Shown here: positions 15,320-48,090 of the stretch, one piece after another | Position numbering within the stretch: position 1 is the first letter of the stretch | How the letters are laid out: each line of letters begins with the position of its first letter | IMG/VR virus record: IMGVR_UViG_3300009788_000118 | Coordinates: 1-54,120 of that record | Source of the DNA: a virus | Lineage: Duplodnaviria > Caudoviricetes | Reading direction: 5' to 3' (one strand) | Length of the DNA stretch: 54,120 bases | Program-made: the position numbers and the translations under genes | The notes under the pieces: generated by a model | Databases searched by the model: none | What the model was told of the DNA's origin: nothing | What the model saw: only the letters and a program-made list of their open reading frames with translations

Positions 15320-15598
15320 TTAGGTATCAAAATATCCAAGTCCTTTTAGCATTATATCTACAATCTCCTTAAGAACTGAATCCTGTTTTACGAGATTCAT
15401 CTTTGGAGTTGCTTCACTATTTGCTACTGTTCTTAATATTCCTGGATTGCCCTTAACCCAATATCTACAGAAATAACTATCTCCTTTTACAGAATCGCCT
15501 GTAACAAATCCTCGTTCTGCATCTTTGTGATTAACATCACCTTTTGCGTGATCGGGAACGTAGACGATTTGATCTCCAATTTTAAAATCGTTTGGCAT
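15320..15598 (-). CDS. Hypothetical protein
   Basis: AGGAGGTGA RBS; FKIGDQIVY. Confidence 0.65.
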   Translation of the reverse strand: MPNDFKIGDQIVYVPDHAKGDVNHKDAERGFVTGDSVKGDSYFCRYWVKGNPGILRTVANSEATPKMNLVKQDSVLKEIVDIMLKGLGYFDT

Positions 15599-15671
15599 TA
15601 TATCACCTCCTTTCAAATGAATTCATTCGAAGAGGAGAACGATTTATGCTCTCCTCTTCTGATGAAGCCAC

Positions 15672-15986
15672 TTATGCCGCCCTGCGTTGATTTACTTTCC
15701 TGCTCTTTGCCGCGATCTTGTTATTTCGCCTCCGGCGTGCAACTATCTTCTCCTTTGCGCGTCCCATGGACGGATGATATGTTGACCACTTAGATCCCAC
15801 CCGTTTGAGGCGTTGAGGACGTGGGTCTGTATCAGCATATTTCGCTTTTTTGAGGTGGTCTAATCGGGTTGTCAATCGCTTCGCTTTTCGTGTGATTCGA
15901 AATAATGCAATAGGTTTTGATCTTTTTTTATCGAACATTTCTTCAAGATCCTTGATCTCTTTCTTGATCCTTTGTTCTTCCTTCAT
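15672..15986 (-). CDS. Highly basic hypothetical protein
   Basis: GAGGAGG RBS; K/R rich. Confidence 0.6.
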   Translation of the reverse strand: MKEEQRIKKEIKDLEEMFDKKRSKPIALFRITRKAKRLTTRLDHLKKAKYADTDPRPQRLKRVGSKWSTYHPSMGRAKEKIVARRRRNNKIAAKSRKVNQRRAA

Positions 15987-17174: not shown

Positions 17175-17477
17175 TTATTCCTCTGAAAATCTCCAGATTG
17201 GAACTGAAACGAATCCAGAATGAACACCTTTACCTGTATTCTTAAACAAACCTGATGCCATACAAAGTATGGCGACTTCCTCATTCTCGCTCCAATCTTT
17301 TATAAAAAACTCTCCTTCTTCAAGATGTTTATCCGGCAGGTTAGTTGTTAGAGTAGCAAAAGGCGAGTCATCACTATCTATGAAAAGCTGGATGGCAACT
17401 CTTTTATTCGGGTACTCCCCAATCTTGAACTTCAGTAATTCATAGATTGGGGAGTCGATCTTTGCGTCAAGAGTCAT
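17175..17477 (-). CDS. DUF4313-like protein
   Basis: PFATLTTNL, IKDWSENE, TGKGVHSGFV. Confidence 0.6.
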   Translation of the reverse strand: MTLDAKIDSPIYELLKFKIGEYPNKRVAIQLFIDSDDSPFATLTTNLPDKHLEEGEFFIKDWSENEEVAILCMASGLFKNTGKGVHSGFVSVPIWRFSEE

Positions 17478-19131: not shown

Positions 19132-19422
19132 CTATGTTGGCTCATTTCTTTGTTTCTCTCTCATAACCATTCCATCCTCAGCCCACTCAGCCCAAGGCTC
19201 AGTTAGGGACGATGTCTTTTTTACTGCTGGAAGTCCTTCAATCCTGTGCCAACAATGGCCCCAACGTTGATCTCCCCAACAGTTACATTTCCATCCTGAT
19301 TTAGTTTTTCGGATCGTGTACTCCTCTTTGAGATGGCCTTTGTCTATGATACAGACACCAGCCATCTCGAAAAGCTCGAACAGGTACTCGATTCCTTTGT
19401 GTTTAATCTTCTTTTGTTTCAT
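19132..19422 (-). CDS. SWIM zinc-finger-like protein
   Basis: CNCWGDQRWGHCWH (CxC...CxH). Confidence 0.65.
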   Translation of the reverse strand: MKQKKIKHKGIEYLFELFEMAGVCIIDKGHLKEEYTIRKTKSGWKCNCWGDQRWGHCWHRIEGLPAVKKTSSLTEPWAEWAEDGMVMREKQRNEPT

Positions 19423-19913: not shown

Positions 19914-19929
19914 TTGGATTACCTCCTTT

Positions 19930-20130
19930 TGAGCCGAGGAGAGGATGACAGGACACATCTCGGTATCTCTGTCTGTCCTTCTCCTCAGCTGGATATGCCA
20001 CAAGCACGGCCTTGTAACTTATGATAGCTGAGATACGGTATAATCTACGGCAACATAGTCCGACCCGTCTCAACCAGCCCTCGGATCTCTTCCTACATGC
20101 TTGAGTCATAAGATTTCTGCTTGTAGCACG
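19930..20130 (-). ncRNA. Candidate structured intergenic RNA
   Basis: Helices 19996-20006/20118-20128, 20018-20024/20106-20112 (nested) and 19932-19942/19980-19990, with G-U pairs on the minus strand. Confidence 0.45.
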
Positions 20131-21856: not shown

Positions 21857-22228
21857 TTACCATGTCTCCGGTGTTGGATGATCTATGAGGTATTTTTCAA
21901 TTTGATCTTCTTCTCCAAAGATCCCGAGAGTAACTTCCGTGTTGTCATCAGCAATACCAATATACTCCTTCTTTTCAAAATTCATAATTATGTCAGTTTT
22001 GATGATGAGTTCGGTTAACTTTCTGTTGATCAACTTATCTTGTTCCATTTTACCCCTTCCTTCGTTATCATAGAATTTTATGATCTTTCGAGTCAGTTCC
22101 ATGTCCGCGCTGATGCGTTTATCCAGCTCCCAGCATCGGTCGCACATTCTTGTACCAATCATGAGAGTCGGCTCGTTGCACCATTTGCATGGCACGGTTA
22201 GATCTTTGTCTTTTACATATCTAAGCAT
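21857..22228 (-). CDS. Hypothetical protein with N-terminal zinc finger
   Basis: CKWC...CDRC. Confidence 0.6.
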   Translation of the reverse strand: MLRYVKDKDLTVPCKWCNEPTLMIGTRMCDRCWELDKRISADMELTRKIIKFYDNEGRGKMEQDKLINRKLTELIIKTDIIMNFEKKEYIGIADDNTEVTLGIFGEEDQIEKYLIDHPTPETW

Positions 22229-22249
22229 TTTCTCATCCCTCCCATTTTC

Positions 22250-22480
22250 TCATCCCTCCCATCCTATTTTCTTTGATATCTCTGGATTGAATCCACCGAG
22301 TTTGTTAAATCTCTCCTTGAAGTAATCAGAAAGAGGGAGATCAGATCTGAAGTAGATGTGTCCACTAGGAGCAAACCTCCATAGGCTTGCCATCTCTTCC
22401 TGAGATAGTTTGTCAATATTCTTTTTATGTTGTTCTATCCTTTCATCGGTTATCATTTTCATCACCTCTTTTTTTTTCAT
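22250..22480 (-). CDS. Hypothetical phage protein
   Basis: MASLWRFAPSGH...GGFNPEISKKIGW; start uncertain. Confidence 0.65.
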   Translation of the reverse strand: MKKKEVMKMITDERIEQHKKNIDKLSQEEMASLWRFAPSGHIYFRSDLPLSDYFKERFNKLGGFNPEISKKIGWEG

Positions 22481-23070
22481 GATATTAGTAAGATGATGGA
22501 AATAGATGATCTATCACTTCAGATCAAATTTCTCCATCACCCGTAAATATCAGGAAGTGTAATTGTTATCCGTTGAAAGAGATTGGCTAGCGGGGTGTCA
22601 TCCGTTTGCTGGCATACTTAGCTTAGAATCAAAGCGTCATCCACTTTGTAGTCCTGCTCGGTCGTGGCAGTCCTCTGCCGTTTGATCGGCGATACCAAGT
22701 GCATCGGTCTCAAGGAGGCTCTGCTCACACGTCCTGGTGCGTAGGATGGTCGGAGGGAAGGCATTCTCGCTACTAGCAGGGGACTGAGTATCTCCACACC
22801 CAGCCTTACGTTGGCAATGTTCCCTCACACATGTTCCCTCACACATGTTGACGCTTTGATCTTTGGGTCGCATTCACAGCCCAGAAGATCCCCTCTCAGG
22901 TCTTTCTCTGCTCGATTGTCAAGGTACATGTCACTTACGATCAAAAGACCTCTAAGGCTATGCGGTGCCGTGTATACAGGCTTTGCAGTCCTCAGAGTTA
23001 GATCAAGAAGAGCAGATGATCCAGTCACGTCTCGCCCGGAACTCCGCTCTTTTTGAAGTAACTCTAAAGT
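22480..23070 (-). ncRNA. Candidate large (~590 nt) structured ncRNA
   Basis: GC-richer gap without a convincing CDS; many helices incl. 12-bp long-range pair 22628-22639/22849-22860. Confidence 0.5.
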
Positions 23071-23090
23071 ATATTTTTGTTTCATGATCT

Positions 23091-23222
23091 TTACTTGATG
23101 CGTATGGCGTCTTTTAGGTTGAAAAATAGGCGGCACTTTTTACAAGTTCTAAAGCCCGCCTGCAGAGACCGTCTCCAATGTTTTCTACCTGCTTTACATT
23201 TTGGGCAACCAAATTTCATCAT
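23091..23222 (-). CDS. Small zinc-ribbon protein, first gene of the left operon (not in ORF track)
   Basis: MMKFGCPKCKAGRKHWRRSLQAGFRTCKKCRLFFNLKDAIRIK; GAGG RBS. Confidence 0.55.
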   Translation of the reverse strand: MMKFGCPKCKAGRKHWRRSLQAGFRTCKKCRLFFNLKDAIRIK

Positions 23223-23255
23223 CCCAACCTCAACCTATCTTCATTTTCAACCTCC

Positions 23256-23284
23256 ATTCTACTACAAAAAAGCCAGGTTGTCAA
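23256..23284 (-). promoter_or_regulatory. Strong sigma70-type early promoter
   Basis: TTGACA-17 nt-TAGAAT at the head of the minus-strand arm. Confidence 0.8.
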
Positions 23285-23298
23285 GTCTTTTTTTGGGC

Positions 23299-23384
23299 CG
23301 TAAGTGCCTGAAATAACTCAAGAAAGTCATATACCTGTAAGTTTCACTGTAAACCGAGAAACTTAGTAATTTCAGACACTTACG
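23299..23384. repeat. Inverted pair of IHF-like sites
   Basis: CGTAAGTGCCTGAAATAACT (23299-23318) vs reverse complement of 23365-23384, 18/20 identical. Confidence 0.6.
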
Positions 23385-23746
23385 CGCCCTAAAACATGCG
23401 ATCCCATGCCTTATCCTGTTCAACGGCTGATGCTAGTCACTTGATTGGTCAAAGGGATGGGCTGAGTGATACATTCAAGCAAAGGGATAGGCTAGGAAGC
23501 CTTCCAGTGAGTGCAGGAACTCTGAATTATCCTCTAGCTTAACGCTGGAGGTATCGTGTATCGTATCTTGATCCATCGTTCCTACTCCGCTGCTCTGAGT
23601 TATCCCGGCGACTCCCCGTAACCCCTTGATTTTTCTCGGTTTACCTTGAGTTATCCCTCACCTAGTTTAACCCAATTTAACAACACAAAAAACCCAACAA
23701 TTCCGGTCTCTTACCAGTTATCCCAATTTCCCAGTTATCCCTCTGG

Positions 23747-23778
23747 TAGTCACTTTCAAAAGCGGTAAAAATACGAAC
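23747..23778. repeat. 13-6-13 site, copy 4 (inverted, degenerate)
   Basis: Reverse complement GTTCGTATTTTTA-CCGCTT-TTGAAAGTGACTA. Confidence 0.5.
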
Positions 23779-23891
23779 ATGACCCATCTCTCACTTGCTC
23801 CTCCCTCCGATTCGGGTTGGGTGCATTGACTTATGGAAAAATAAATAAAAAAATATACAAGCTACCTTTACTTCTCTTTCCTTACCACCTC

Positions 23892-23923
23892 CTCCGTAAT
23901 TTCACCCCGTTAAAAATACGGAG
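23892..23923. repeat. 13-6-13 palindromic site, copy 5
   Basis: CTCCGTAATTTCA-CCCCGT-TAAAAATACGGAG. Confidence 0.75.
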
Positions 23924-24224
23924 ATGAGATATAGACATGTTGACCCTTTCCAATTTGTGTAAAACGACCTCCGGACAGATAACTGGGAAATTAGGGAAAC
24001 TTGTAAGTGTTTGAAATTGTTGGAGAAAACGTGTTGTTTAATTGAGTTAAATATAGTGAGGGATAACTGGGGGATAACCTAGTTATTTCAACGACTTAGG
24101 AGGGGCCAGACCTTTACTCTGGGATAACTCTATCTAATTAGATGGATCAAATTAGTGTAACCGACTGAAATAACTAGGTTTTTAGCTCTACCCGTAACCC
24201 TCCGATTTTCTTGGAGAAATTGAG

Positions 24225-24256
24225 TTCCGTATTTTTACCGCGTTAAAGTTATGAAG
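24225..24256. repeat. 13-6-13 palindromic site, copy 6
   Basis: TTCCGTATTTTTA-CCGCGT-TAAAGTTATGAAG. Confidence 0.65.
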
Positions 24257-24358
24257 ATGGGTTGAAAGTCATGAATTTGAATAGATTTGAATAGATTTGG
24301 TTGTGGGTGTTTTATTAAAAGACCTCGAAAGCGAATGAATAAATCTCACGGATTAGTT

Positions 24359-24374
24359 TGGCACAGTTCTTGCA
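24359..24374 (+). promoter_or_regulatory. Sigma54 (-24/-12) promoter
   Basis: TGGCAC-AGTTC-TTGCA consensus. Confidence 0.65.
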
Positions 24375-24474
24375 AGGGAGGATTCGGCTCGATCACGACA
24401 ATGGATGATCTCACCTATCACCGACAATGGATGATCCGACAATACTCCCGACACTTATGCCGGCTGCAGGCATC

Positions 24475-24717
24475 TTGTGAAAACCTTCACAAAGGCATGT
24501 GAAAATTTTCACGATCGCTTGTGAATCTTTTCACTTGATCCTTGTGAAAGGATTCACATTGTGTCAAAATATTGACAGCCACATTGTGATATCCTACTTT
24601 GTGGTATGTCAAAATATTGACGGAACCAGGACACATCAGGTATTTAAGACCTTTTTTGTCCTAGTTAGATGTGTCAAAAAATTGACGCTCGCTTGCCAGA
24701 TCGTCAAAATATTGGCA
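24475..24717. promoter_or_regulatory. Array of eight TGT-N10-ACA-type palindromic binding sites
   Basis: TGTGA-N6-TCACN at 24476, 24498, 24520, 24543; YGTCAAAAWATTGRCR at 24562, 24607, 24672, 24702. Confidence 0.75.
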
Positions 24718-24851
24718 CTGTGAAATAAAGCCACAGTTCGCTATAAGTTGCTGATTTTACAGCATATTTTACTGTGGCTTTATTGCCAGAATCGTGGTCT
24801 TTTTACCACAAATTTCCAGTGCAATTTTCTCGTTGCCATTTTTCTGGGGGC

Positions 24852-24864
24852 TAACTTGCTGATA
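24852..24864. promoter_or_regulatory. IHF-like site between palindrome array and sigma54 promoter
   Basis: TAACTTGCTGATA is the reverse complement of a WATCARNNNNTTR match. Confidence 0.55.
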
Positions 24865-24900
24865 TCACTCATAAAAATAGTTCAGTTCCTCGCCCCTTTT

Positions 24901-24916
24901 TGGCACAAAAGTTGCA
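24901..24916 (+). promoter_or_regulatory. Sigma54 (-24/-12) promoter
   Basis: TGGCAC-AAAAG-TTGCA, 30 bp upstream of the ATG at 24947 (GGGAGG RBS). Confidence 0.75.
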
Positions 24917-24946
24917 CCTTAAAAGTAGTAAAAAGGGAGGAACCAA

Positions 24947-25111
24947 ATGAAAAAAGCAAGTCGAAAAATAGGAACACCAAAACAGAGGGTAGTTTTTCAG
25001 TGCAATTTCTGTCAACACATTTGGAAAAGGATGATCTCACCTAAAACTTTTGAGGTTGTCTGCCCTAAGTGCAAGGAAATTGACACTGAAATTATTGGGA
25101 TCACAGAGTAA
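24947..25111 (+). CDS. Small zinc-ribbon protein (54 aa; not in ORF track)
   Basis: MKKASRKIGTPKQRVVFQCNFCQHIWKRMISPKTFEVVCPKCKEIDTEIIGITE; GGGAGG RBS. Confidence 0.7.
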   Translation: MKKASRKIGTPKQRVVFQCNFCQHIWKRMISPKTFEVVCPKCKEIDTEIIGITE

Positions 25112-25236
25112 GGAGGCTAACGCAGTGGAACTCAATTCAACTCAGTTTAACTCATTTTTGTCGGTCCTGGGTAGCTTGAACCCAGTTAGCCTTGGCTTGA
25201 CTGACTATTCCACAAATGAAGGGAGGTGAACACACT

Positions 25237-25560
25237 ATGACAAAGTTAAGCGCAAAACTCGTTAAAGAAACTAAAACTCACAGAACTCTGAGTGTTCCTG
25301 CTTATTCAGACGGAGTCCTGGTCGGTTGGGGTCAAGTTGAAGTATTCCAGACCACTCCGGCAGGGTTAGAGGCAGCCCGCAAGGCTTTAACAAAAGGTAA
25401 CGTAGTTGACCTTAATCGGCAGACTATTACCGATGTTAAGAACGCTATAAGGACCGGAAGGTCATTATGGGCAGCTTTAAAGAAGGAGAGCGCAAAGAAC
25501 CCTGAATTAGCTAAAGAGGTCGAAGTCTTGGCTAAAAAGTACGGGTTTAACGTGAAGTAG
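25237..25560 (+). CDS. Hypothetical protein, paralogue of 11921..12247
   Basis: GGAGGTGA RBS; shared motifs. Confidence 0.75.
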   Translation: MTKLSAKLVKETKTHRTLSVPAYSDGVLVGWGQVEVFQTTPAGLEAARKALTKGNVVDLNRQTITDVKNAIRTGRSLWAALKKESAKNPELAKEVEVLAKKYGFNVK

Positions 25561-29595: not shown

Positions 29596-29627
29596 AAGTG
29601 TATTTTTACTGTGTTAAAAATACGAAG
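29596..29627. repeat. 13-6-13 palindromic site, copy 7
   Basis: AAGTGTATTTTTA-CTGTGT-TAAAAATACGAAG. Confidence 0.75.
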
Positions 29628-29642
29628 ATACAAGGAGATATA

Positions 29643-30467
29643 ATGAGCAAAGTATCCATCATAATACCAGCACGACATGAGCCGTATCTTCAAAAGACGA
29701 TCGATGTTATTTTGGAGGCAGCTGAAGGAGATATCGAAATTATAGCAATTCTTGATGGATATTGGCCAGATGTACCTATAAAAGATGATCCTCATGTCAA
29801 GCAGATTCACTTCTCGGAGTCAAAGGGTATGCGAGCGTCAATCAATGCAGGCGCAAGAATCGCACAAGGAAAATATCTATTGAAATGTGACGCTCATTGT
29901 TTATTTGATGAAGGTTTTGATAAAAAACTTAAGACGGATTGTCAACCTAACTGGACGGTTGTGCCTATAAGATACTCTCTTTGTGTTAGAATTTTAGATG
30001 GTAAATTGACAGATTGGTCACGAAAGATACATAAAAAGTACGAGTTTGAATATATTGCTTCTGATGACTTAAAAGGTAGAAAATGGCCTGAGTATGCTAA
30101 ACGAGTAGAAGGTCAGAAGATTGTAGATTTGATGACGTCCCAAGGTTCATGTTGGTTTATGCATCGAGATAGGTTTTGGGCATTGGGTGGAGAAGATGAA
30201 GTAAACTATGGACAAATGGGTCGAGAAGCTCAAGAAATTTGCCTAAAGACGTGGTTATCTGGAGGACGTTTTATTCTCACTCGAAATACATGGTATGCTC
30301 ATTGGAGCAAAGCAAGAGGAAATCCTAGATTTTTAAGCAGAGAAGAGAAACAAAAATCTGTTGATTTTGCCAAAGATTTTTGGTTAAATGATAGATGGTC
30401 TCTAGCTACTAAAAAACTGAGTTGGTTGATAGAAAAGTTTGCTCCGGTGCCGACATGGAACCTCTAG
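29643..30467 (+). CDS. Glycosyltransferase family 2 (GT-A)
   Basis: VSIIIPARHE, ILDG, GMRASINAG, KCDAHC. Confidence 0.88.
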   Translation: MSKVSIIIPARHEPYLQKTIDVILEAAEGDIEIIAILDGYWPDVPIKDDPHVKQIHFSESKGMRASINAGARIAQGKYLLKCDAHCLFDEGFDKKLKTDCQPNWTVVPIRYSLCVRILDGKLTDWSRKIHKKYEFEYIASDDLKGRKWPEYAKRVEGQKIVDLMTSQGSCWFMHRDRFWALGGEDEVNYGQMGREAQEICLKTWLSGGRFILTRNTWYAHWSKARGNPRFLSREEKQKSVDFAKDFWLNDRWSLATKKLSWLIEKFAPVPTWNL

Positions 30468-32237: not shown

Positions 32238-33977
32238 ATGACTGATCTCTCAATACTCATACCTGCTCGTAATGAGATGTTTCTTTCAAGAACTATTGAA
32301 AATATTCTTGAAAACATCGAAGGTGACACAGAGATTATTGCTGTGTGTGATGGCAACTGGCCAGATCCTACAGTTGAAGACCATCCAAGAGTGAATTTGA
32401 TTTATCACAGTGAGCCTATAGGTCAGCGAGCAGCAACAAATGAAGCAGCACGTTTATCTCAAGCAGAGTTTGTGATGAAGGCAGATGCACATTGTGCTTT
32501 TGATAAAGGTTTTGATGTTAAACTTATGGCGGATTGTAAGTATGATTGGACGGTTGTTCCACGAATGCATAATCTTCATGCTTTTAATTGGAAATGTGAA
32601 TTATGTGGTAATGAAACGTATCAAGGGCCTGAGCCAAAAAAATGTGAGAAATGTGGAAAATGTTGTATAGATACTATGTTTGAGAGAAAGATAATATGGC
32701 AGCGACGCGAAAATCGTAAATCAGATTACATGTGGTTTAATAAAGATTTAAAATTCTCTTATTTCGATAGAAGTCATTTAAAAGAATATGGTAATGACAT
32801 TTCTGCTCTTAAACATAAATATGCTCACTCTCGTCGAGATTGGGCAAAAGGAAAGATTACAGATCAGATGTGTGCGATTGGTGCATGTTGGATGATGCAT
32901 CGAAAACGATATTGGGAGTTAGATGGAGTTGACGAGGCTCATGGCTCTTGGGGTCAAATGGGTGTCGAAATTGCTATGAAAAGTTGGCTATCCGGTGGCA
33001 GGCAGGTTGTGAATAAGAATACTTGGTTTGCCCATATGTTTAGAACACAGGGCGGAGATTTTGGCTTTCCATATCCCCTAAGAGGAAAAGAAGTACAAAA
33101 TGCAAGAAAGTATTCTCAGAAGCTTTGGAAAGGAAATCTGTGGCCGAAGGCAATACGACCTTTATCATGGTTAATAGATCATTTTAGTCCTTTACCTGGA
33201 TGGGATGAGGAGTTGAAAAAGATGGATGAAGTTAAGAAACCTCAAATAAAAACCAAAAAAAGAGGGCTTACAAGAGGATTAGTTTATTATACTGATAATC
33301 GTTGTGAGGAACGAATCTTAGGTATAGTTCGGAGACAACTTACAAAAATATGCAAGGGTTATGAGATTATATCGGTGTCTCAATATCCAATAGACTGGGG
33401 AAGAAATATTGTGATGCCTTTTATACATAGCCCTCTGAGTATGTTCAAGCAGATGTTACGAGGTCTTCAAGAGAGTACAGCTGATATTGTGTTCTTTGCA
33501 GAAAATGATGTTTTATATCATTCATCTCATTTTGATTTTACTCCAACAGAGGAGAAAACTTTTTACTATGATCGGAATCGATGGGCAGTAGATACTGAAA
33601 CAGGAAAAACTGTCTTTTATCGATCTAATTGTGTTTCTTTGATGGTAGCTTTCAGAGAAGTTTTATTAAAGCATTATACTAAAAAGGTCGAGATTACAGA
33701 AAAAGATGGATTCAGAGGTCGTTTAGGATTCTCACCTCCGAAGGGATTAGAAGGTCCAGATAGGGTTGGTATTGCTCGATCTTATATGGCTGAGTTTCCT
33801 AGTGTAGATATCAGACATAATAATACTATGACGCGAAAACGCATGGAAAAGTCTATGTTTAGAAATGAACGATCATGCAAAGATTGGGCAGAATCCGATG
33901 GTGTTGTTGGATGGGGAAAAACAAAAGGACGATTTGATGAATTCTTGCGAGAAGTTGAGAGGGATAAGAAAGAGTAA
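32238..33977 (+). CDS. Two-domain glycosyltransferase (GT2 + second GT-A-like domain), paralogue of 29643 gene
   Basis: LSILIPARNE, KADAHCAFD, WLSGGR; Zn-ribbon insert CELC..CEKC; second domain VFFAENDVLYH. Confidence 0.85.
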   Translation: MTDLSILIPARNEMFLSRTIENILENIEGDTEIIAVCDGNWPDPTVEDHPRVNLIYHSEPIGQRAATNEAARLSQAEFVMKADAHCAFDKGFDVKLMADCKYDWTVVPRMHNLHAFNWKCELCGNETYQGPEPKKCEKCGKCCIDTMFERKIIWQRRENRKSDYMWFNKDLKFSYFDRSHLKEYGNDISALKHKYAHSRRDWAKGKITDQMCAIGACWMMHRKRYWELDGVDEAHGSWGQMGVEIAMKSWLSGGRQVVNKNTWFAHMFRTQGGDFGFPYPLRGKEVQNARKYSQKLWKGNLWPKAIRPLSWLIDHFSPLPGWDEELKKMDEVKKPQIKTKKRGLTRGLVYYTDNRCEERILGIVRRQLTKICKGYEIISVSQYPIDWGRNIVMPFIHSPLSMFKQMLRGLQESTADIVFFAENDVLYHSSHFDFTPTEEKTFYYDRNRWAVDTETGKTVFYRSNCVSLMVAFREVLLKHYTKKVEITEKDGFRGRLGFSPPKGLEGPDRVGIARSYMAEFPSVDIRHNNTMTRKRMEKSMFRNERSCKDWAESDGVVGWGKTKGRFDEFLREVERDKKE

Positions 33978-34384: not shown

Positions 34385-36280
34385 ATGGCAGAAATAAAAA
34401 AGACGATAGAAGAAGATGGTAATGGAGATTATACTTCTCTTGAAGCCTGTATGAATGCTAATGAACAAGATCTTACAGATGCAGGAGGGGATTATTTTCT
34501 TGCTGAAATAAATGGTACAGAGTTAGGTGGAGCCTGGAATTCTCCTGATACTTCTCCTGTAGACATAGATGGATGGACTACCTCAGCAACAAGTTACATA
34601 TCAGTTTACACAACCTCTACAGCTATACATCCTGGTAACTGGTCAACAGGAAACAACGAATATAGATTAGTAGTGGGACATGGTGAGTGCATAACCATAA
34701 TCGAGCAGTATGTTAGAATCGATGGAATTCAGATGAGTTTTCAGGTTAATTACGACTCTAGCCATTATGCTATCCATGTTAGCCCTGATAGTAGTGATAC
34801 TGACCACCGAATATCTAATTGTATCCTAAAAGAAGTTGGAAGTTATACTGGAGAACATGGTATTCTATTTGCTTGGCTTCCTGCGCAAACCAATATGACT
34901 GCCAAAGTGTGGAACTGTGTTATGTATGATTTTGACGGAACCGGTCAGTCTGCGGTTCATATTAATAGTGAGGGAGATTGGACTGTTGATATATATAATT
35001 GCACTATTGATAATTGCGGGGCATACGGCATTGAAAATGCAGGAGGTCAGGCAGATTGTAGAGTTTATAATACAGGAGCAATCAACTGTGGTACTGCTGG
35101 ATTTTTAAATCTTGACGTAGATACAACAAACAGCACCACAGCACCTACATTTGTTGATATAGATGCAGAGGATTATCATCTTGCGGCTAGTGACGTTACT
35201 TGGACAGGTCAAGGGACTGATACTCCGAGTGGATATCAATCAAGTCTAGATATCGATGGAGAGACTAGAACAAGTACATGGGATATAGGGGCGGATGAGA
35301 ATTTGTTGGTAGCATCTCCCTCTTTATCACCAAGTATATCACCGTCTGCATCAGAATCTCCCAGCATTTCACTTTCTCCATCACCTTCGGTGTCTTCATC
35401 CGCAAGTTTAAGTCCTAGTGTGTCTCGAAGCGAATCTGCGAGTATTTCTCCATCGATATCGTCTTCATTATCACCTTCAGCTAGTTTATCACCTAGCATT
35501 AGTCCGAGCATTAGTCCTTCAATATCACTTTCTATATCTTCATCATTAAGTCCATCAGCATCGATAAGTCCTTCAATTAGTCCTAGTGAATCGGCTTCTA
35601 TATCACCATCAATTAGTCCATCTGTGTCTCCGTCAGCTTCTATTAGTCCATCTATATCTCCATCTGAATCTTTAAGCATTTCACCATCAATCAGTCCTAG
35701 TATTTCTCCATCTGCTAGTGTTTCTCCTAGTGTTAGTCCATCTATATCATTATCTATATCATTATCTATATCTCCATCTATATCTCCTTCAATATCACCA
35801 TCTGCTTCTGAATCGCCAAGTATATCATCCTCGATCTCTCCTAGTGTGTCACCATCTGCATCTATCTCTCCTTCAGCATCTGTATCCTCATCCATTAGTC
35901 TTAGTGAATCACCCTCAATTTCACCAAGTATAAGTCCTTCTGTTAGTCCAAGTGCAAGTATTTCACCATCGGCATCAATATCAGCATCTATTTCTCCAAG
36001 TCCAAGTTGTCCAGCAGGTTGTGCTGCATGTGAAGATTGTATAGAAGTAACATTTGCTGGTCTTTCAGGTACTTGTGAAGTTGGTTGTGTTGATTATAAT
36101 ACTACTTATACACTTAGTCAGGTTGCTGATACTTGTGTGTGGCAATATACTTCTGGTAATCTTGTTGTTTCTGTAACATGTTCTGCTTCGTATTGGTGGC
36201 TTAAGGTTGTAAATGATGGAACAGAGTGTGCAGTTTGGAAATATCCAACTGCAGATAGATCAGACTGTCCACGTTATTAA
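34385..36280 (+). CDS. Beta-helix (pectin lyase-like) protein with (S-X)n Ser/Pro repeat and Cys-rich C-terminus
   Basis: GDYTSL, repeated IxNC/VYN motifs, DYHL, DIDGETR..WDIGADE; repeat at 35315-36007. Confidence 0.8.
   Translation: MAEIKKTIEEDGNGDYTSLEACMNANEQDLTDAGGDYFLAEINGTELGGAWNSPDTSPVDIDGWTTSATSYISVYTTSTAIHPGNWSTGNNEYRLVVGHGECITIIEQYVRIDGIQMSFQVNYDSSHYAIHVSPDSSDTDHRISNCILKEVGSYTGEHGILFAWLPAQTNMTAKVWNCVMYDFDGTGQSAVHINSEGDWTVDIYNCTIDNCGAYGIENAGGQADCRVYNTGAINCGTAGFLNLDVDTTNSTTAPTFVDIDAEDYHLAASDVTWTGQGTDTPSGYQSSLDIDGETRTSTWDIGADENLLVASPSLSPSISPSASESPSISLSPSPSVSSSASLSPSVSRSESASISPSISSSLSPSASLSPSISPSISPSISLSISSSLSPSASISPSISPSESASISPSISPSVSPSASISPSISPSESLSISPSISPSISPSASVSPSVSPSISLSISLSISPSISPSISPSASESPSISSSISPSVSPSASISPSASVSSSISLSESPSISPSISPSVSPSASISPSASISASISPSPSCPAGCAACEDCIEVTFAGLSGTCEVGCVDYNTTYTLSQVADTCVWQYTSGNLVVSVTCSASYWWLKVVNDGTECAVWKYPTADRSDCPRY
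35315..36007 (+). repeat. Coding (S-X)n repeat, ~230 aa
   Basis: SPSISPSASESPS... with diversified Ser codons. Confidence 0.9.
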
Positions 36281-36293
36281 AAAGGTAAAATAA

Positions 36294-39200
36294 ATGGCAA
36301 CTCCTGTAATAGATAGTGTTGGTGCTTTAGTACATGGCCAGTCCTGTATTATTACCAGCACAGGCACTAATTTTGGTACTAAATCAGTTGCTGCTCCTAC
36401 TATGTGGGACGACGGTTCTGGAGTATCAGAAGGAGATCCACCAAGTTCAAAGGGATGGACAGGTAACTATCCAAGTGGTCTAACTGGTGGGAATGCACAA
36501 TATAATTTGCAATATCGTCCAGTTAATTATAGAAGCATAGCTGGTCCACATGGTATTACCAATTATTATTTAGCAGGATGTGGCTTAGGTTATGGTATTG
36601 CCGGAGCTGATACAGCTAATGTAATGGTATGGAAGTCATTAAGTATCTCAAAACCGCAGAAAGTTTTTATTAGTTTTTATCAGAGATTTGATCCGAGTTG
36701 GGTGTTTGGGGATGATAATAATATAAAGGAAGTGCTTTGGTCAGTAGGTACTCCTTATGGTCCCAGTTATTGGTATGTTACCTTTAATCCAGTCTTTAGC
36801 AGCCCTACCAATTTAGGAGAATGGAGAACTACCTGTGAATGGGGAAATGTGGCAACAAGCCCTTGGTTAGGCTGGGTAAAAGTCGAGATAGAGTTTCTCT
36901 TTGATAGTAGTGGTGGCAAGGCAGATATTTGGGATAATGGCGTACAGAAGACGTTTGCTACTTGCAATACAGATTCATGGAGTGGAACAGATCGTCATCT
37001 TTCAGTTGGAGGTTTTCAGCGTCCTCATTCTGATTGGGGTGGTGAACCTTATACTGATAATTTTCGTTATCAAGCAGATATTTATATAGATACAGCATGG
37101 TCAAGAGTAGTCATTGGTGATAATCAAACTTATGCAAATTGCACAAAAAGGGAAATACAAATTCCTACAGCATGGGCTACTGATGAAATAACAGTAACAG
37201 TTAATCAAGGTATTTTTTCTGCTGAGGATGATATATATGTATTCGTTATTGATTCGAATGGAGACCCGAATGTTACTGGTTATGGTCCATTAAGCTTTGG
37301 AGGTTCTGTAAGTCCATCGCCATCATCTTCAATATCACCGTCATCTTCAATATCACTATCACCGTCATCTTCATTATCTTTATCTCCGAGTTCTTCAGTA
37401 TCGCCTTCATCATCACCAAGTCCCTCAGGAGGTACGATTTCACCAAGTCCTTCATCTTCAATCTCTCCAAGTTTGAGTCCATCAGCAAGTATATCGCCTT
37501 CAGTGAGTCCAAGTCCTGAATGTCTTGGTGGGGGACAAGGTGATGAATTTAACGACGAATCTATCGATGTTTTATGGACACAAGATTCAGGAGTTGGAGG
37601 TTCCTTTGCGGAGACTGCTGGAGGTGATTTGGAAGTAACTTCTGGTAGTGGTAATATTTGGGGTTCTACATTTACTCCGACTTGGATTTATCAATGTGTA
37701 TGAGGAGATTTTGATGTTTATATAAAAGTAACTGCTGCAGATATTAATATTTTTGCTGAGGCTGCTGGAATAATTTTTCAAGAGTTTGATCAACCAACTA
37801 ATTATAATATCTTTGTTTCTTTGGAATATTTTGGAGGTCTGATATATCAAAGACGAGATACTATTAATAATAGTAGTGATACAACAGATATTGGTGGTGC
37901 TGCAAGTCCATGTTGGCTTAGATTACGCAGGATAGGTCAGTATTTTTCAGCATATTATGCTACTGTTGAACCCACTCAATTAAATGATTGGATATTAATT
38001 AATGCTCCTATAGACTTAGTTACTTCTGCAAGGGGTTTTTTAGGTCATGGTGCTATTCATCCGGAGAGTGGTTCTCAGTTTGTATCTACTGTTGATTATT
38101 TTAGAGCTCCAGCTCCTGCATGGATATGGGATAGTGGTGTTTGCAATGAGGGGACAGTAGTAACAAATACGTGTTCTTCAGCTAGTATCAGTCCATCAAT
38201 ATCACCAAGTATATCTCCAAGTGCGAGTCTGTCTGCTAGTTTGAGTCCATCTATATCTCCATCTATATCTCCATCTGAGTCTCCTTCGATTTCTTCGTCT
38301 CCATCTCCAAGTTTAAGTCCATCTGCTTCTTTGTCTCCATCGTTGTCACTTAGCATATCTGCTTCGGTATCTCCTTCGATAAGTCCATCTGCATCGATTT
38401 CGCCTTCTATCTCACCATCTCCATCGGAGTCAGGAAGTCCAAGTTTATCTCCCAGTATCTCACCATCAGTATCACCTAGTGCTAGTTTATCATCTTCAAT
38501 CAGTCCAAGTGAGTCAGCATCTGTATCACCTAGCGTAAGTCCTTCAATCTCTCCAAGTTTGAGTGCTTCTATTAGTTCATCAGCTTCATTGTCTCCATCT
38601 ATATCTCTATCAATATCTCCATCAGTTAGTCTTTCGATTTCACCGTCTGTATCTCCAAGCATTAGCCCAAGTATTAGTCCCTCAGTTTCTCCGTCAGCGT
38701 CTATATCTCTTAGTTTGAGTCCATCAATTTCGCCAAGTATATCTCCGAGTGCTAGTATATCTCCGAGTTTATCTCCGTCTATATCTCCTTCAGTTAGTCC
38801 ATCAGCGTCGTTATCTCCGAGCATATCTCCAAGTATTTCTCCGAGTATAAGTCCAAGTGAATCTCCCAGTTTATCTCCATCAGTATCTCCATCTGCATCA
38901 ATTAGTCCATCTGAGAGTTTGTCGATATCTGCGAGTATATCACTTTCACTTTCACCTTCGATATCTCCTAGTGAGTCTCCAAGTATATCTGCAAGTGTAT
39001 CACCGAGTGAGTCTCCATCCATATCTCCAAGTGCAAGTTTGTCTCCAAGTTTATCTCCATCACTTAGTCCATCAATTTCACTGAGTTTGTCTCCATCACT
39101 TTCACCATCTGAGTCTCCGTCTATATCTTTTAGTCCTTCTCCATCACTTAGTCCATCAATCTCATTGTCATTAAGTCCATCGATTAGTCTGAGTATATCT

Positions 39201-39401
39201 CCAAGTCTAAGCCCTTCGGCTAGTGTTAGTCCTTCGCTTTCTCCAAGCATAAGTCCTAGTATTAGCCTAAGTGTTTCGCCTTCGATATCTCCATCACCCT
39301 CAGTATTTATTACTGAAAGGATGTTTGTTGCATTTTCAAGTACGAAACCTGATGTATCTTTTGAAGGCAGAAAACCAGATATCACTTTTACAGGAGATTA
39401 A
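36294..39401 (+). CDS. Large lectin/lyase-like protein with two (S-X)n repeats; single in-frame TGA at 37701-37703 (readthrough, nonsense mutation or error)
   Basis: ORFs 36294..37703 and 37821..39401 are in the same frame with no other stop; IYQCV*GDFDVYIKV reads as one continuous beta-sandwich domain. Confidence 0.7.
38175..39302 (+). repeat. Coding (S-X)n repeat, ~375 aa
   Basis: SPSISPSASLSPS... with diversified Ser codons. Confidence 0.9.
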
Positions 39402-45974: not shown

Positions 45975-46426
45975 ATCATAAATCTGTTTTTGTATCTAAG
46001 TCTGCAAAGCCGGAACTTTTAGCTCCAAGATATTATGCTAAAGATAAAACTAAAACTAAAGCTAAAGGTAATGTTATTAAAGCTGATCTTGTCAAGTTCA
46101 AAAAAGCTACAGTCTTTTGGATGGGCAAACCGTTGCCTAAATCATTGTTAGGTTTTGGAGAACATCTTGGGTTAGATATTCTGAAACTGGATGGTGATAT
46201 AACATTACTTATTAATGCCCAAGCTCTTGTGATACACGAAGTCGATACTTATAGATTTAATGGAGTCATTGCTGCAATTAATCTTGCAGTGAATTATGAT
46301 GTTCCTGTTTTTTGGATTGACAAAAATGTTGCACCTCGTCAATGGATGTTCTCTTTTAAAAAAGTTTTCGTGGGGGATCTTTATGCAGGATTCTTCTGGA
46401 AAGAGGTTATGCAATGGATCGTGTAG
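45971..46426 (+). CDS. Hypothetical protein (first gene of second glycan cassette)
   Basis: ATGA coupling. Confidence 0.6.
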   Translation: MNHKSVFVSKSAKPELLAPRYYAKDKTKTKAKGNVIKADLVKFKKATVFWMGKPLPKSLLGFGEHLGLDILKLDGDITLLINAQALVIHEVDTYRFNGVIAAINLAVNYDVPVFWIDKNVAPRQWMFSFKKVFVGDLYAGFFWKEVMQWIV

Positions 46427-48090
46427 CAATAGCATTTAACAACAAATTAGGTAATTTTATTTACATGACGTCTGCGGTAAAGATTCTTCGGCAGTGGGGA
46501 TATAAGGAGATAGATCTAATAACAGATCAATCATTCTTAAGCAGTCCTGCTGAGGAACTTACCGCAGATGTTTTCGACAATGTAGTGACGGAATATGATG
46601 AAGAAGCTTATGATCGTATTTTCCGAGCTGAGTGGTCTGTTCCGATGAATGCTCAGAATCGACTTTTTGGGGGATTTGATCAAGCTACGTCTCGAAATGT
46701 TGATTGGAATGGAAGAGGTATACATGAAGTACAGGTCTATCTTAATATGATCGGAGCTTCTTGGGAGGATTTTGATGGGTATATACTTTATCCAAAAGAG
46801 GTGGCAGTATTAAATCCTTTAAAGTCAAAATTTATTGCTTTAGCAAATTGCTCTGGCTCAGATCAAGCAAATCTTAAAGGATGGCCCAAATTTCCTGAGC
46901 TTTCAGAGGTTTTAAGTGGGTTAGGATATAATATAATACTTGTGGGAGCTGGCGATGAACTTAAAGGATGTAAAGGTCATAACTTCGTGGGGAGTTATTC
47001 AATCAAAGAAACCGCAGATATTATTCGACAATGTGATCTCTTGATTGCTTCATCAACAGGTCTTGCTATTGTAGCTGATGCAGTTGGAACTCCAGTGATA
47101 CAGTTAGATGGTCCAATTCCATCGACAAAGACGCATCCTCTTCTTGTTGATTATTCAATCGTTCGAAGTTATATTTCATGTGCTCCATGTTTTCAATCTC
47201 TTCTTTTTACTTCATGTAAAGATCCAATTTGCATGAAGAACATACAAGTGGATAAGGTGATTAATGCGACGACAAAGATGTTATCATCTCCTCCAGTAAA
47301 AGGACATTTCTTTGGGTCTTATCAGTCTCCAAAAAGTGATGTACCTGATTGTGATGATAGGGTCGCATATTTAATTGCATGCTTTAACCGTTACCATGTT
47401 TTATATGAGTTTTTGGCTAATCTCGAACATAGCAGTCCTCAAAAAGGTGAGATTTTCTTTCTTAATGATGCCAGTTCCGATCCAAGAATTGAGACTGCAT
47501 TAAAATCATTTCATCTTGACGACATCAAGATACACTATCTCGAAACAGATTACAAAGAAAAACTTGCACTTTTGAGGAGGTATAAGAAAATGCCTTCGGC
47601 ACATGCCTACAATCGACTTTTTAGAGAAGCTTTTAAAATGCATGAAAAAGATCCTTTTGATTTTATAATGATTCTTGATCCAGACTCTATTATGCACGAT
47701 CGATGGATTCAAAAGATGATTGTGACATATCGAGAGGCTAAAAAACTTCACCCAAATATCGGGCTTTTTTCTGGATTCAATAATGAAAATCATCCGATAT
47801 ATGATAATGAAGAAACAAAAGAGATTTATCGAGGCACATATAGCGACTATCGCTTGCGAAACGGAGTAAATCTTCAGTTCATGTTCGAGCCGAGTTTCTT
47901 TCCGGAACATGGATTTTACGATCTTGAAACTGAACATGCAACTCTTTCGTCTGATCTTCCAAAGAATGAGATGCTCACAAAGAAGGGATTTAAGAGTATG
48001 ATTCTTGTACCGTCTATGCTTCAGCAAATTGGAGCTTACGACTCAGCTCTTCCAAGAAGGAGGAGTAATGAAGTTGCAAAGGATTTCTGA
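46414..48090 (+). CDS. GT9 (heptosyltransferase-like) + GT2 fusion glycosyltransferase
   Basis: KLGNFI, KGWPKF, STGLAIVADAVGTP, CAPC...C...CM; second domain IACFNR, LNDASSD, ILDPD. Confidence 0.85.
   Translation: MDRVAIAFNNKLGNFIYMTSAVKILRQWGYKEIDLITDQSFLSSPAEELTADVFDNVVTEYDEEAYDRIFRAEWSVPMNAQNRLFGGFDQATSRNVDWNGRGIHEVQVYLNMIGASWEDFDGYILYPKEVAVLNPLKSKFIALANCSGSDQANLKGWPKFPELSEVLSGLGYNIILVGAGDELKGCKGHNFVGSYSIKETADIIRQCDLLIASSTGLAIVADAVGTPVIQLDGPIPSTKTHPLLVDYSIVRSYISCAPCFQSLLFTSCKDPICMKNIQVDKVINATTKMLSSPPVKGHFFGSYQSPKSDVPDCDDRVAYLIACFNRYHVLYEFLANLEHSSPQKGEIFFLNDASSDPRIETALKSFHLDDIKIHYLETDYKEKLALLRRYKKMPSAHAYNRLFREAFKMHEKDPFDFIMILDPDSIMHDRWIQKMIVTYREAKKLHPNIGLFSGFNNENHPIYDNEETKEIYRGTYSDYRLRNGVNLQFMFEPSFFPEHGFYDLETEHATLSSDLPKNEMLTKKGFKSMILVPSMLQQIGAYDSALPRRRSNEVAKDF

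Follow-up and report, generated by a model that had tools for sequence, protein, structure and literature searches.

A candidate orphan early gene, split by a tandem duplication and bracketed by RNA hairpins, at a phage locus that resembles a large noncoding RNA

Does the GC-rich interval at positions 22480-23070 of an uncultivated, lytic-type phage encode a large noncoding RNA (ncRNA) or something else? The interval lies in the linear IMG/VR virus record IMGVR_UViG_3300009788_000118 (54,120 bp; estimated completeness, 69%), which was analyzed over its whole length and is referred to here as the window. It forms the left end of a gap of ~2.4 kb (22480-24947) that separates a minus-strand from a plus-strand gene arm and contains no convincing long open reading frame (ORF). 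An original prediction, made from the sequence letters, had proposed one large ornate RNA near the start of the early transcript, with only unconvincing ORFs. We favor, at a probability of just over one-half, a different reading, in which the interval would be part of a polycistronic early mRNA rather than a free-standing ornate RNA: a compositionally foreign, lineage-restricted orphan early gene, frameshifted in this genome and bracketed by inter-cistron hairpins that serve in processing or stability.

The two minus-strand ORFs that had been dismissed as unconvincing are halves of one frame, split by a tandem duplication, and the parts of this putative gene are as follows.

22825..23085, minus strand: ORF A, N-terminal part of the split gene (86 codons from ATG 23085; 103 codons from GTG 23136)
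22817..22844, unstranded: exact 14-nt tandem duplication; the length is not a multiple of 3, so the frame is shifted
22637..22816, minus strand: C-terminal part of the split gene, in the frame of ORF B (22637..22873), ending with the TGA at 22637-22639

The duplication, already named in the original prediction, is exact, and a direct repeat of 14 nt was reached by 0 of 1,000 shuffles. The TGA stop of ORF A lies inside the second repeat copy, and ORF B reads the repeat in the next frame. When one repeat copy was deleted from the window sequence, the longest stop-free frame comprised 162 codons, a length found in 0.33% of 3,000 dinucleotide shuffles; with both copies retained, no frame is longer than 104 codons, a length reached by 20% of shuffles.

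The stretch was present in three sequencing runs, namely, X1 (probably the source of the window) and X2 and X3 (two other studies), all as DNA contigs, with no RNA run among them; the comparative evidence consists of short contigs and of the differences listed for them. A 395-nt contig of X2 (record 6; covering 22667-23067) leaves out 14 nt at 22821, and its two other gaps, -2 (at 22921) and -1 (at 22934), together make 3. With the 26 listed substitutions and the 3 gaps of this contig applied, no stop interrupted the frame of ORF A over 161 codons, up to TGA 22637; the same changes cut the plus-strand frame from 103 to 48 codons. The listed substitutions are 26 of 34, the other 8 being probably near the contig ends, so that the open frame is provisional. 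A second X2 contig (22676-22873; 193 nt aligned to 198 nt of the window) has 23 gap letters, which by arithmetic, rather than from a listed row, fits 14 nt out and 9 nt in. In the relatives, the orphan gene would accordingly read as one open frame that runs from ATG 23085 to TGA 22637 (~144 codons, or 161 counted from stop to stop). In this genome, the duplication would allow at most a truncated product of 86 residues, and decay of the gene is probable.

To assess coding, a second-order Markov model with 3-base periodicity was fitted to 49 long ORFs from the window. It scored ORF A (frame 0) highest from 23140 to 22811 and ORF B (frame 1) highest in most windows from 22900 to 22571; thus, the switch of coding frame falls at the duplication. 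The joined reading scored -0.003 per nt, a value reached by 2 of 500 shuffles, and the noncoding windows of 23300-24900 scored at most -0.045. Since stop-freeness alone raises the score, stop-free random ORFs of the same dinucleotide make-up were taken as the null. Against these, the joined reading had a z score of 1.74 (reached by 4.5% of 2,000), inside the span of values for four real small genes (1.09 to 1.93), while the C-terminal part alone had 1.30, the plus-strand ORF had 0.10, and a further frame, ORF C, had -1.13. The joined reading also showed GC1 > GC2 > GC3, and its purine and G contents at codon position 1 resembled those of phage genes.

Two ways of producing a longer product from the window as it stands were considered and rejected. 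Readthrough of TGA 22825-22827 into ORF C (recoding or selenocysteine) would enter a frame in which no coding signal was seen, and no slippery heptamer for a -1 ribosomal frameshift at the duplication was seen in the sequence. Regarding initiation, ATG 23085 lies 5 nt past the TAA of the upstream 43-codon ORF described below, and its translational coupling to that ORF is possible. It has no Shine-Dalgarno core, which is not unusual here, because only 30 of the 49 longest-ORF starts in the window have one; an alternative in-frame start, TTG 22944, is preceded by GAGG. We infer that the ORF is translated.

Two hairpins bracket the putative gene.

22990..23069, minus strand: HP5', ~33 pairs in three stacked stems
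22480..22552, minus strand: HP3', 28 pairs, in the spacer between the stop of the gene and the next cistron

Folded as minus-strand RNA, 22480-23090 (611 nt) reached -198.2 kcal/mol (z = -4.5; 20 shuffles), whereas the plus strand had a z score of -2.1. Folding of the parts separately traced this signal to the two end hairpins. HP5' (22985-23075, minus strand) had -38.8 kcal/mol (z = -5.9; 0 of 200 shuffles), and HP3' (22476-22556, minus strand) had -29.8 kcal/mol (z = -4.7; 0 of 200 shuffles), compared with -28.0 and -20.0 kcal/mol, respectively, on the plus strand. Among 7,204 90-nt windows from both strands, ranked by GC-corrected stability, HP5' was 1st and HP3' was 3rd. The original prediction had recognized the hairpin at 22480-22552 and, within what we call HP5', the helices 23043-23051/23008-23016 (8 of 9 positions) and 23059-23068/22991-23000 (8 of 10), whose mismatches are G·U pairs on the minus strand. 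In total, the 61 pairs of HP5' and HP3' include 9 G·U pairs on the minus strand (5 and 4, respectively), and there is one A/C opposition. Because of this asymmetry and the loss of ~10 kcal/mol on the plus strand, we regard the hairpins as RNA features of a minus-strand transcript, not as DNA palindromes, and in this respect the proposal of RNA-level structure on the early transcript was borne out.

The same asymmetry bears on the idea of a DNA-level cis element (i.e., an origin, a packaging site, or an operator array), the inverted repeats of which would bind proteins on double-stranded DNA. The interval does border a 1.9-kb repeat-rich noncoding region with a large imperfect palindrome and iteron-like repeats, but minus-strand folding of the hairpins is favored by a wide margin, the bias of their imperfections (9 G·U pairs, 1 A/C opposition) is one that a site in duplex DNA would lack, and the repeated motifs that look like protein sites lie outside the interval, at 23600-24720. 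We consider such an element very improbable.

The idea of one large ornate ncRNA fared less well than its end hairpins. The 290-nt GC-rich center (22600-22890) folded no better than shuffled sequences (z = -1.45, equaled by 15 of 200); the spacer 22553-22640 had a z score of +1.37 and the hairpin 22890-22960 one of -2.1. In a comparison restricted to one relative, one contig, and its listed changes, 14 of the 27 listed substitutions fell at paired positions of the minimum-energy fold, of which 10 break a pair, 4 keep it by a one-sided change, and 0 are two-sided. The claimed helix 22944-22951/22898-22905 is present in the window (8 of 8 pairs) but is broken in the relative, where 5 of the 9 pairs of 22943-22951/22897-22905 are lost and none is compensated.

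The hairpins and the putative gene take their place in an early transcript through the following neighbors.

23284..23256, minus strand: sigma-70-like early promoter, TTGACA-17-TAGAAT, 11 of 12 matches
23222..23091, minus strand: 43-codon ORF with a CxxC...CxxC zinc-ribbon-like pattern, putative first cistron of the early transcript
22250..22456, minus strand: next early gene, listed as 76 amino acids (aa) from 22480, with ATG 22456 as the likelier start

The near-consensus promoter of the original prediction was thus recovered. It is the best of 7 sites in 22000-25300, where shuffles average 6.3, so that the number of sites is not above chance. Given this promoter, followed by the 43-codon ORF, the interval would be transcribed leftwards as the second unit of an early operon, presumably from this promoter. 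The transcript would start at the promoter, carry the zinc-ribbon ORF, and then carry the GC-rich orphan gene, with HP5' just past the first cistron and HP3' in the spacer ahead of the ribosome-binding site of the next gene. No terminator-like site was found on the minus strand within 22000-25300, and HP3' is not an intrinsic terminator, as an A run, not a U run, follows the hairpin on the minus strand.

A known precedent is the early precursor of T7, in which five RNase III sites are hairpins between cistrons (PMC4858673). These hairpins (R0.3 to R1.3) are long and imperfect, with internal loops, and are placed between cistrons of the early transcript of the host polymerase and just upstream of the next ribosome-binding site. 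Both hairpins of the interval offer about two or more helical turns of imperfect double-stranded RNA on the transcribed strand (33 and 28 pairs, with internal loops). HP3' and two hairpins farther along the early operon (19921-20010 and 15586-15675) share the fold type of the T7 sites and their placement before a ribosome-binding site, whereas HP5', overlapping the beginning of the putative ORF, would not be cleanly inter-cistronic. By this analogy, from which we infer cleavage, HP5' and HP3' would be RNase III-type processing sites or stabilizers that set the ends and lifetimes of cistrons. Further very stable minus-strand hairpins occur in the early operon at 19921-20010, 15586-15675, 19306-19395, and 17371-17460, the first two directly upstream of GGAGG ribosome-binding sites, and long inter-cistron hairpins seem to be a habit of this operon. 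Together with HP5' and HP3', they suggest that the processing of transcripts matters in this phage group, of which no member has been cultured.

Were the interval to be read as a frameshifted orphan gene between such hairpins, it would represent ordinary phage biology: a lineage-restricted early gene caught while being lost, with inter-cistron hairpins of the T7 kind. Phages carry orphan (ORFan) early genes and "morons." The interval resembles these in holding a small, fast-evolving, lineage-restricted ORF next to an early promoter, with deviant composition, and dispensable enough to be frameshifted in one lineage; it differs from them in that neither a promoter nor a terminator proper to it was detected and in that its coding score is under that of every phage gene window. 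A lesson for sequence scanning would be that a tandem duplication of a length not divisible by three can conceal a gene, the mRNA of which then resembles a large ncRNA.

Several observations weigh against the orphan-gene reading. The coding signal is weak, in that the joined reading scored below all 214 gene windows (each at least 0.014), and the GC content of the gene is 55%, against ~40% for the phage. Purifying selection was not detected: of 13 isolated substitutions in the relative, 3 were synonymous and 10 were not, with 0 stops (null mean, 3.7; P of at least 3 synonymous, 0.78). The replacements were slightly conservative (mean BLOSUM, +0.2 versus -0.46; P = 0.089), and the test has low power, one of the two copies compared being the broken one and perhaps drifting, which would raise the nonsynonymous share. 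One of the 8 unlisted substitutions of X2 record 6 could also close the frame. HP5', the strongest hairpin of the window, would sit in codons 6 to 32 of the ORF, where 4 of the 5 listed changes alter the protein and one breaks a well-supported (terminal) pair; the change at 23033 also costs a weak inner pair (pairing probability, 0.45), and that at 23014 converts a G·U pair to G-C.

No homolog of either half was found. A word-based search of 5.8 billion protein clusters returned 8 candidates for ORF A, the 1 match among which was its own 86-aa protein (3 contigs), and 1 candidate for ORF B, which did not score. Exhaustive HMMER comparison with 1.84 billion representatives recovered the protein itself and nothing else, tblastn against 50,697 phage records gave no match, and neither half matched a family in Pfam or PHROGs. 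AlphaFold2 models from the single sequence had pLDDT values of 34.2 (86-aa part) and 49.7 (59-aa part), and the ESM Atlas model had 0.38, single-sequence folds of fragments being weak evidence. ESM Atlas feature matches (ORF A, 0.76, IS240-type transposase fragments; ORF B, 0.90, unnamed clusters with a low recognition score) were at chance level and were set aside. The original prediction had looked to conserved coding in 22825..23136 or 22637..22873 as evidence against an RNA; the joined frame of ~161 codons is there, but the protein is not conserved past close relatives, so the ncRNA reading is weakened and still stands.

Under that reading, the interval would hold a new ncRNA or structured leader, an untranslated GC-rich RNA of ~450 to 600 nt between the hairpins, perhaps released by cleavage there, which would act through nucleotide motifs (three AGGACU copies and a 12-nt long-range helix), the open frame being fortuitous. 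The elements concerned are as follows.

22849..22860, unstranded: arm 1 of a 12-nt inverted repeat, within ORF A
22628..22639, unstranded: arm 2 of the same repeat; its first 3 minus-strand bases are the TGA stop of the gene
22981-22992 and 22644..22655, minus strand: copies 1 and 2 of the motif AGGACURCAAAG; a third AGGACU lies at 22669-22674

All of the sequence features named in the original prediction were found in place. Its 12-bp long-range pair (22849-22860/22628-22639) matches at 12 of 12 positions with 209 nt between the arms, and a perfect 12-nt inverted repeat was reached by 1.5% of 1,000 shuffles. GATCTT (22858) and AAGATC (22885) are present, as is the recurring GGACTRCAAAG, with two minus-strand copies (22991 and 22654) and no others in the window; the full 12-mer likewise occurs twice in the window, both times inside the interval. 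The interval is also GC-richer than its surroundings, as had been noted (0.545 to 0.55 over 22600-22899 versus 0.34 to 0.46 in the flanks). Over 611 nt, the minus strand carries 3 copies of AGGACT, where the rate across the window predicts 0.18. These copies do not share a reading frame, pointing to a signal at the nucleotide level and counting against the orphan gene. In the relative, the motif copy at 22981-22991 carries two changes, and the other copy nears it through 22649 T>C.

An ncRNA would account for hairpins that are RNA-level and exceptional for the window, for an orphan "protein" with neither homolog nor confident fold, for the lack of a synonymous excess, and for the local enrichment of AGGACU and the 12-nt inverted repeat. 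The interval adjoins ~1.9 kb that is clearly noncoding, and 22598-22790 is among the best-kept stretches in the other runs: record 13 of X3 has 8 differences in 152 nt, and the X2 depth inside the interval is highest at 22598-22711. Set against this are a center no more stable than shuffles, pair-breaking changes without two-sided compensation, and the three coincidences that it would require, namely, the 162-codon frame, its gene-like codon usage, and a frame switch exactly at the duplication. No known family can be assigned either, in agreement with the original prediction. Rfam 15 (4,227 families) gave 0 matches at gathering scores in the whole window; at E values up to 10, 22000-24600 gave 4 rows far below gathering (the best, a snoRNA model with an E value of 0.029, lies outside the interval), and a relaxed search of 22540-22900 gave one row, Sphinx_2 (12.6 bits versus a gathering score of 34). 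On balance, we judge an ncRNA of this kind unlikely, although it deserves to be weighed seriously. A more specific form is more doubtful, in which the core (~22553-22989) would be cut from the early transcript as an ncRNA of ~450 nt, of an undescribed family confined to subsurface and cold-seep phages, and would act through its AGGACU repeats, e.g., as a decoy or guide against a host factor, with the frame as a relic or accident. If an ncRNA were nonetheless present, it would be a new large phage RNA family, a rare addition.

Comparison with described RNAs did not place it. The interval is like GOLLD and ROOL in being phage borne, several hundred nucleotides long, and GC-richer than its surroundings, with no recognized protein. 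It differs from them in that no covariance model matched at E values up to 10 (the Rfam set covers GOLLD, ROOL, HEARO, group I/II introns, and ribozymes, none of which matches), in its center, which is not unusually stable, in the absence of covariation in one relative, and in the open, codon-biased frame that spans it. Promoter-proximal antitermination RNAs are known from lambda (nut) and HK022 (put), and a stacked stem-loop ~180 nt downstream of the early promoter recalls them as a lead only; no Rfam model for them matched. The ncRNA of retrons (msr-msd) has a1/a2 inverted repeats, and the 12-nt inverted repeat likewise flanks ~209 nt. A retron was rejected: no reverse transcriptase domain was found with Pfam in 20 large ORFs (10 per window arm), and the neighboring ORFs have no family.

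A further alternative is that the interval is inert acquired DNA, a functionless GC-rich fragment (a moron remnant or an insert resembling a miniature inverted-repeat transposable element [MITE], bounded by the 12-nt repeats) caught between the hairpins, with the frame and the central folds as leftovers. Its GC content (55% versus ~40%) would fit, as would the tolerance of a frameshifting duplication, the neutral-looking substitution pattern, and the spacing of the 12-nt repeats (209 nt). One X2 contig is moreover a mosaic, with ~1% divergence over 22698-22890 and ~16% over 22890-23036 (counted from listed rows). For a MITE or insertion sequence, however, a target-site duplication beside the repeats is lacking and the copy is single in the record, and the stretch is kept in relatives from three studies. 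Nor was a source found. In blastn searches, 22400-24800 (2,401 nt) had no match in 50,697 phage records and 22480-23300 (821 nt) had none in 72,556 plasmid records; a 21-nt core pattern had 0 exact matches in IMG/VR; and a 20-mer searched in 185,579 genomes gave one match, a Phyllobacterium contig, which aligns over 24 nt only and was dismissed as chance. We hold inert DNA to be improbable, more so than either form of ncRNA. An attP site or host-derived fragment was likewise rejected, as the genome match was no better than chance and ARAGORN found no tRNA (or tmRNA) in the window. Pfam searches with 20 large and 10 small ORFs revealed no integrase.

Loci that share a neighboring gene with the window were also collected. 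Among those sharing a 123-aa neighbor, 0 of 15 stretches were confirmed; among those sharing the terminase, 2 of 5 (IMG/VR) and 2 of 49 (metagenomes) were confirmed, and none of them reaches the interval. Two of 8 loci sharing the 76-aa neighbor (L007 and L008) were confirmed, and in these the gene stands among unrelated small genes, with nothing like the interval upstream. The 76-aa protein itself has no family in Pfam or PHROGs. Its homolog in L007 is 59% identical over 65 aa, in an alignment that begins at query residue 6, and GAGG lies 8 nt before ATG 22456.

The 43-codon ORF has GAGG 5 or 8 nt 5' of its ATGs. It gave weak matches only, to phrog_14027 (E value, 0.0055) and, below the cutoff, to Zn_ribbon_4 (E value, 0.0089), and it carries no codon-usage signal (z = -1.35 against stop-free random ORFs). 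One 18-nt string (89% identical; minus strand, AUCAUGAAAnAAAAA) occurs at both 22469-22486 and 23074-23091, around ATG 22480 and ATG 23085, and may be a shared start context or chance. Directly upstream of the -35 box of the early promoter, 23289-23394 contains a 30-nt inverted repeat (80% complementary; 46-nt loop), which ranks with the most stable local folds and lacks a U run on both strands.

The gene content of the two arms is as follows.

287-22480, minus-strand ORFs: replication and nucleotide-metabolism functions, including a family A DNA polymerase fused to a UDG-like domain, a DNA methylase, and an ATP-dependent ligase
287-22480, minus strand, further functions: a PD-(D/E)XK nuclease, exonucleases, a radical-SAM protein, and a NUDIX protein
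~24947 onwards, plus-strand ORFs: a Mu-like portal, a terminase (name taken from relatives), and several glycosyltransferases

Between the interval and the plus-strand arm, 23614-24256 holds a large imperfect palindrome with arms at 23614-23686/24031-24103 (73 nt; 71% complementary) and a second arm pair at 23694-23756/23961-24023 (63 nt; 75%). Numerous GGGATAAC/TTATCCC repeats lie within it, and the highest depth of the X2 relatives lies at 23966-24535; a 19-mer spanning two GGGATAAC repeats had 0 exact matches in IMG/VR. The palindrome looks like an origin, packaging, or regulatory region of the divergent control area. Upstream of the plus-strand operon, CTTGTGAAAnnnTTCACA occurs three times (24474-24558) and TGTGTCAAAATATTGAC four times (24560-24716); both look like operator arrays overlapping -35-like TTGAC boxes.

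Over the whole window, the plus strand has a single AGGACT but 31 copies of the complementary AGTCCT (e.g., 35411-35933 and 37446-39252). Three large late proteins (34385..36280, 36294..37703, and 37821..39401) account for most AGTCCT copies on that strand, where the hexamer forms Ser-Pro(-Ser) codons, and the strand bias is therefore largely a coding effect. Plus-strand AGGACT is still below Markov expectation (1 observed versus 5 to 12 expected). Evasion of Type III restriction was considered as a cause of the bias and rejected, the bias being mostly explained by the Ser-Pro codons; the comparison with T7 and EcoP15I, a case of same-orientation sites (PMC3874151), was not convincing.

Three glycosyltransferase genes of the late operon, at 29598-30467 (GT2), 32238-33977 (GT2), and 46414-48090 (GT9 and GT2), adjoin proteins rich in Ser-Pro-Ser repeats, which suggests that virion proteins may be glycosylated. 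Finally, the large terminase of a related locus (L003, 1517-4051; also L004 and L005) is 60% identical to that of the window and has an in-frame insertion of ~350 residues that is absent from the window. The insertion bears a LAGLIDADG_3 domain (E value, 6.7e-10) and looks like an intein with a homing endonuclease.

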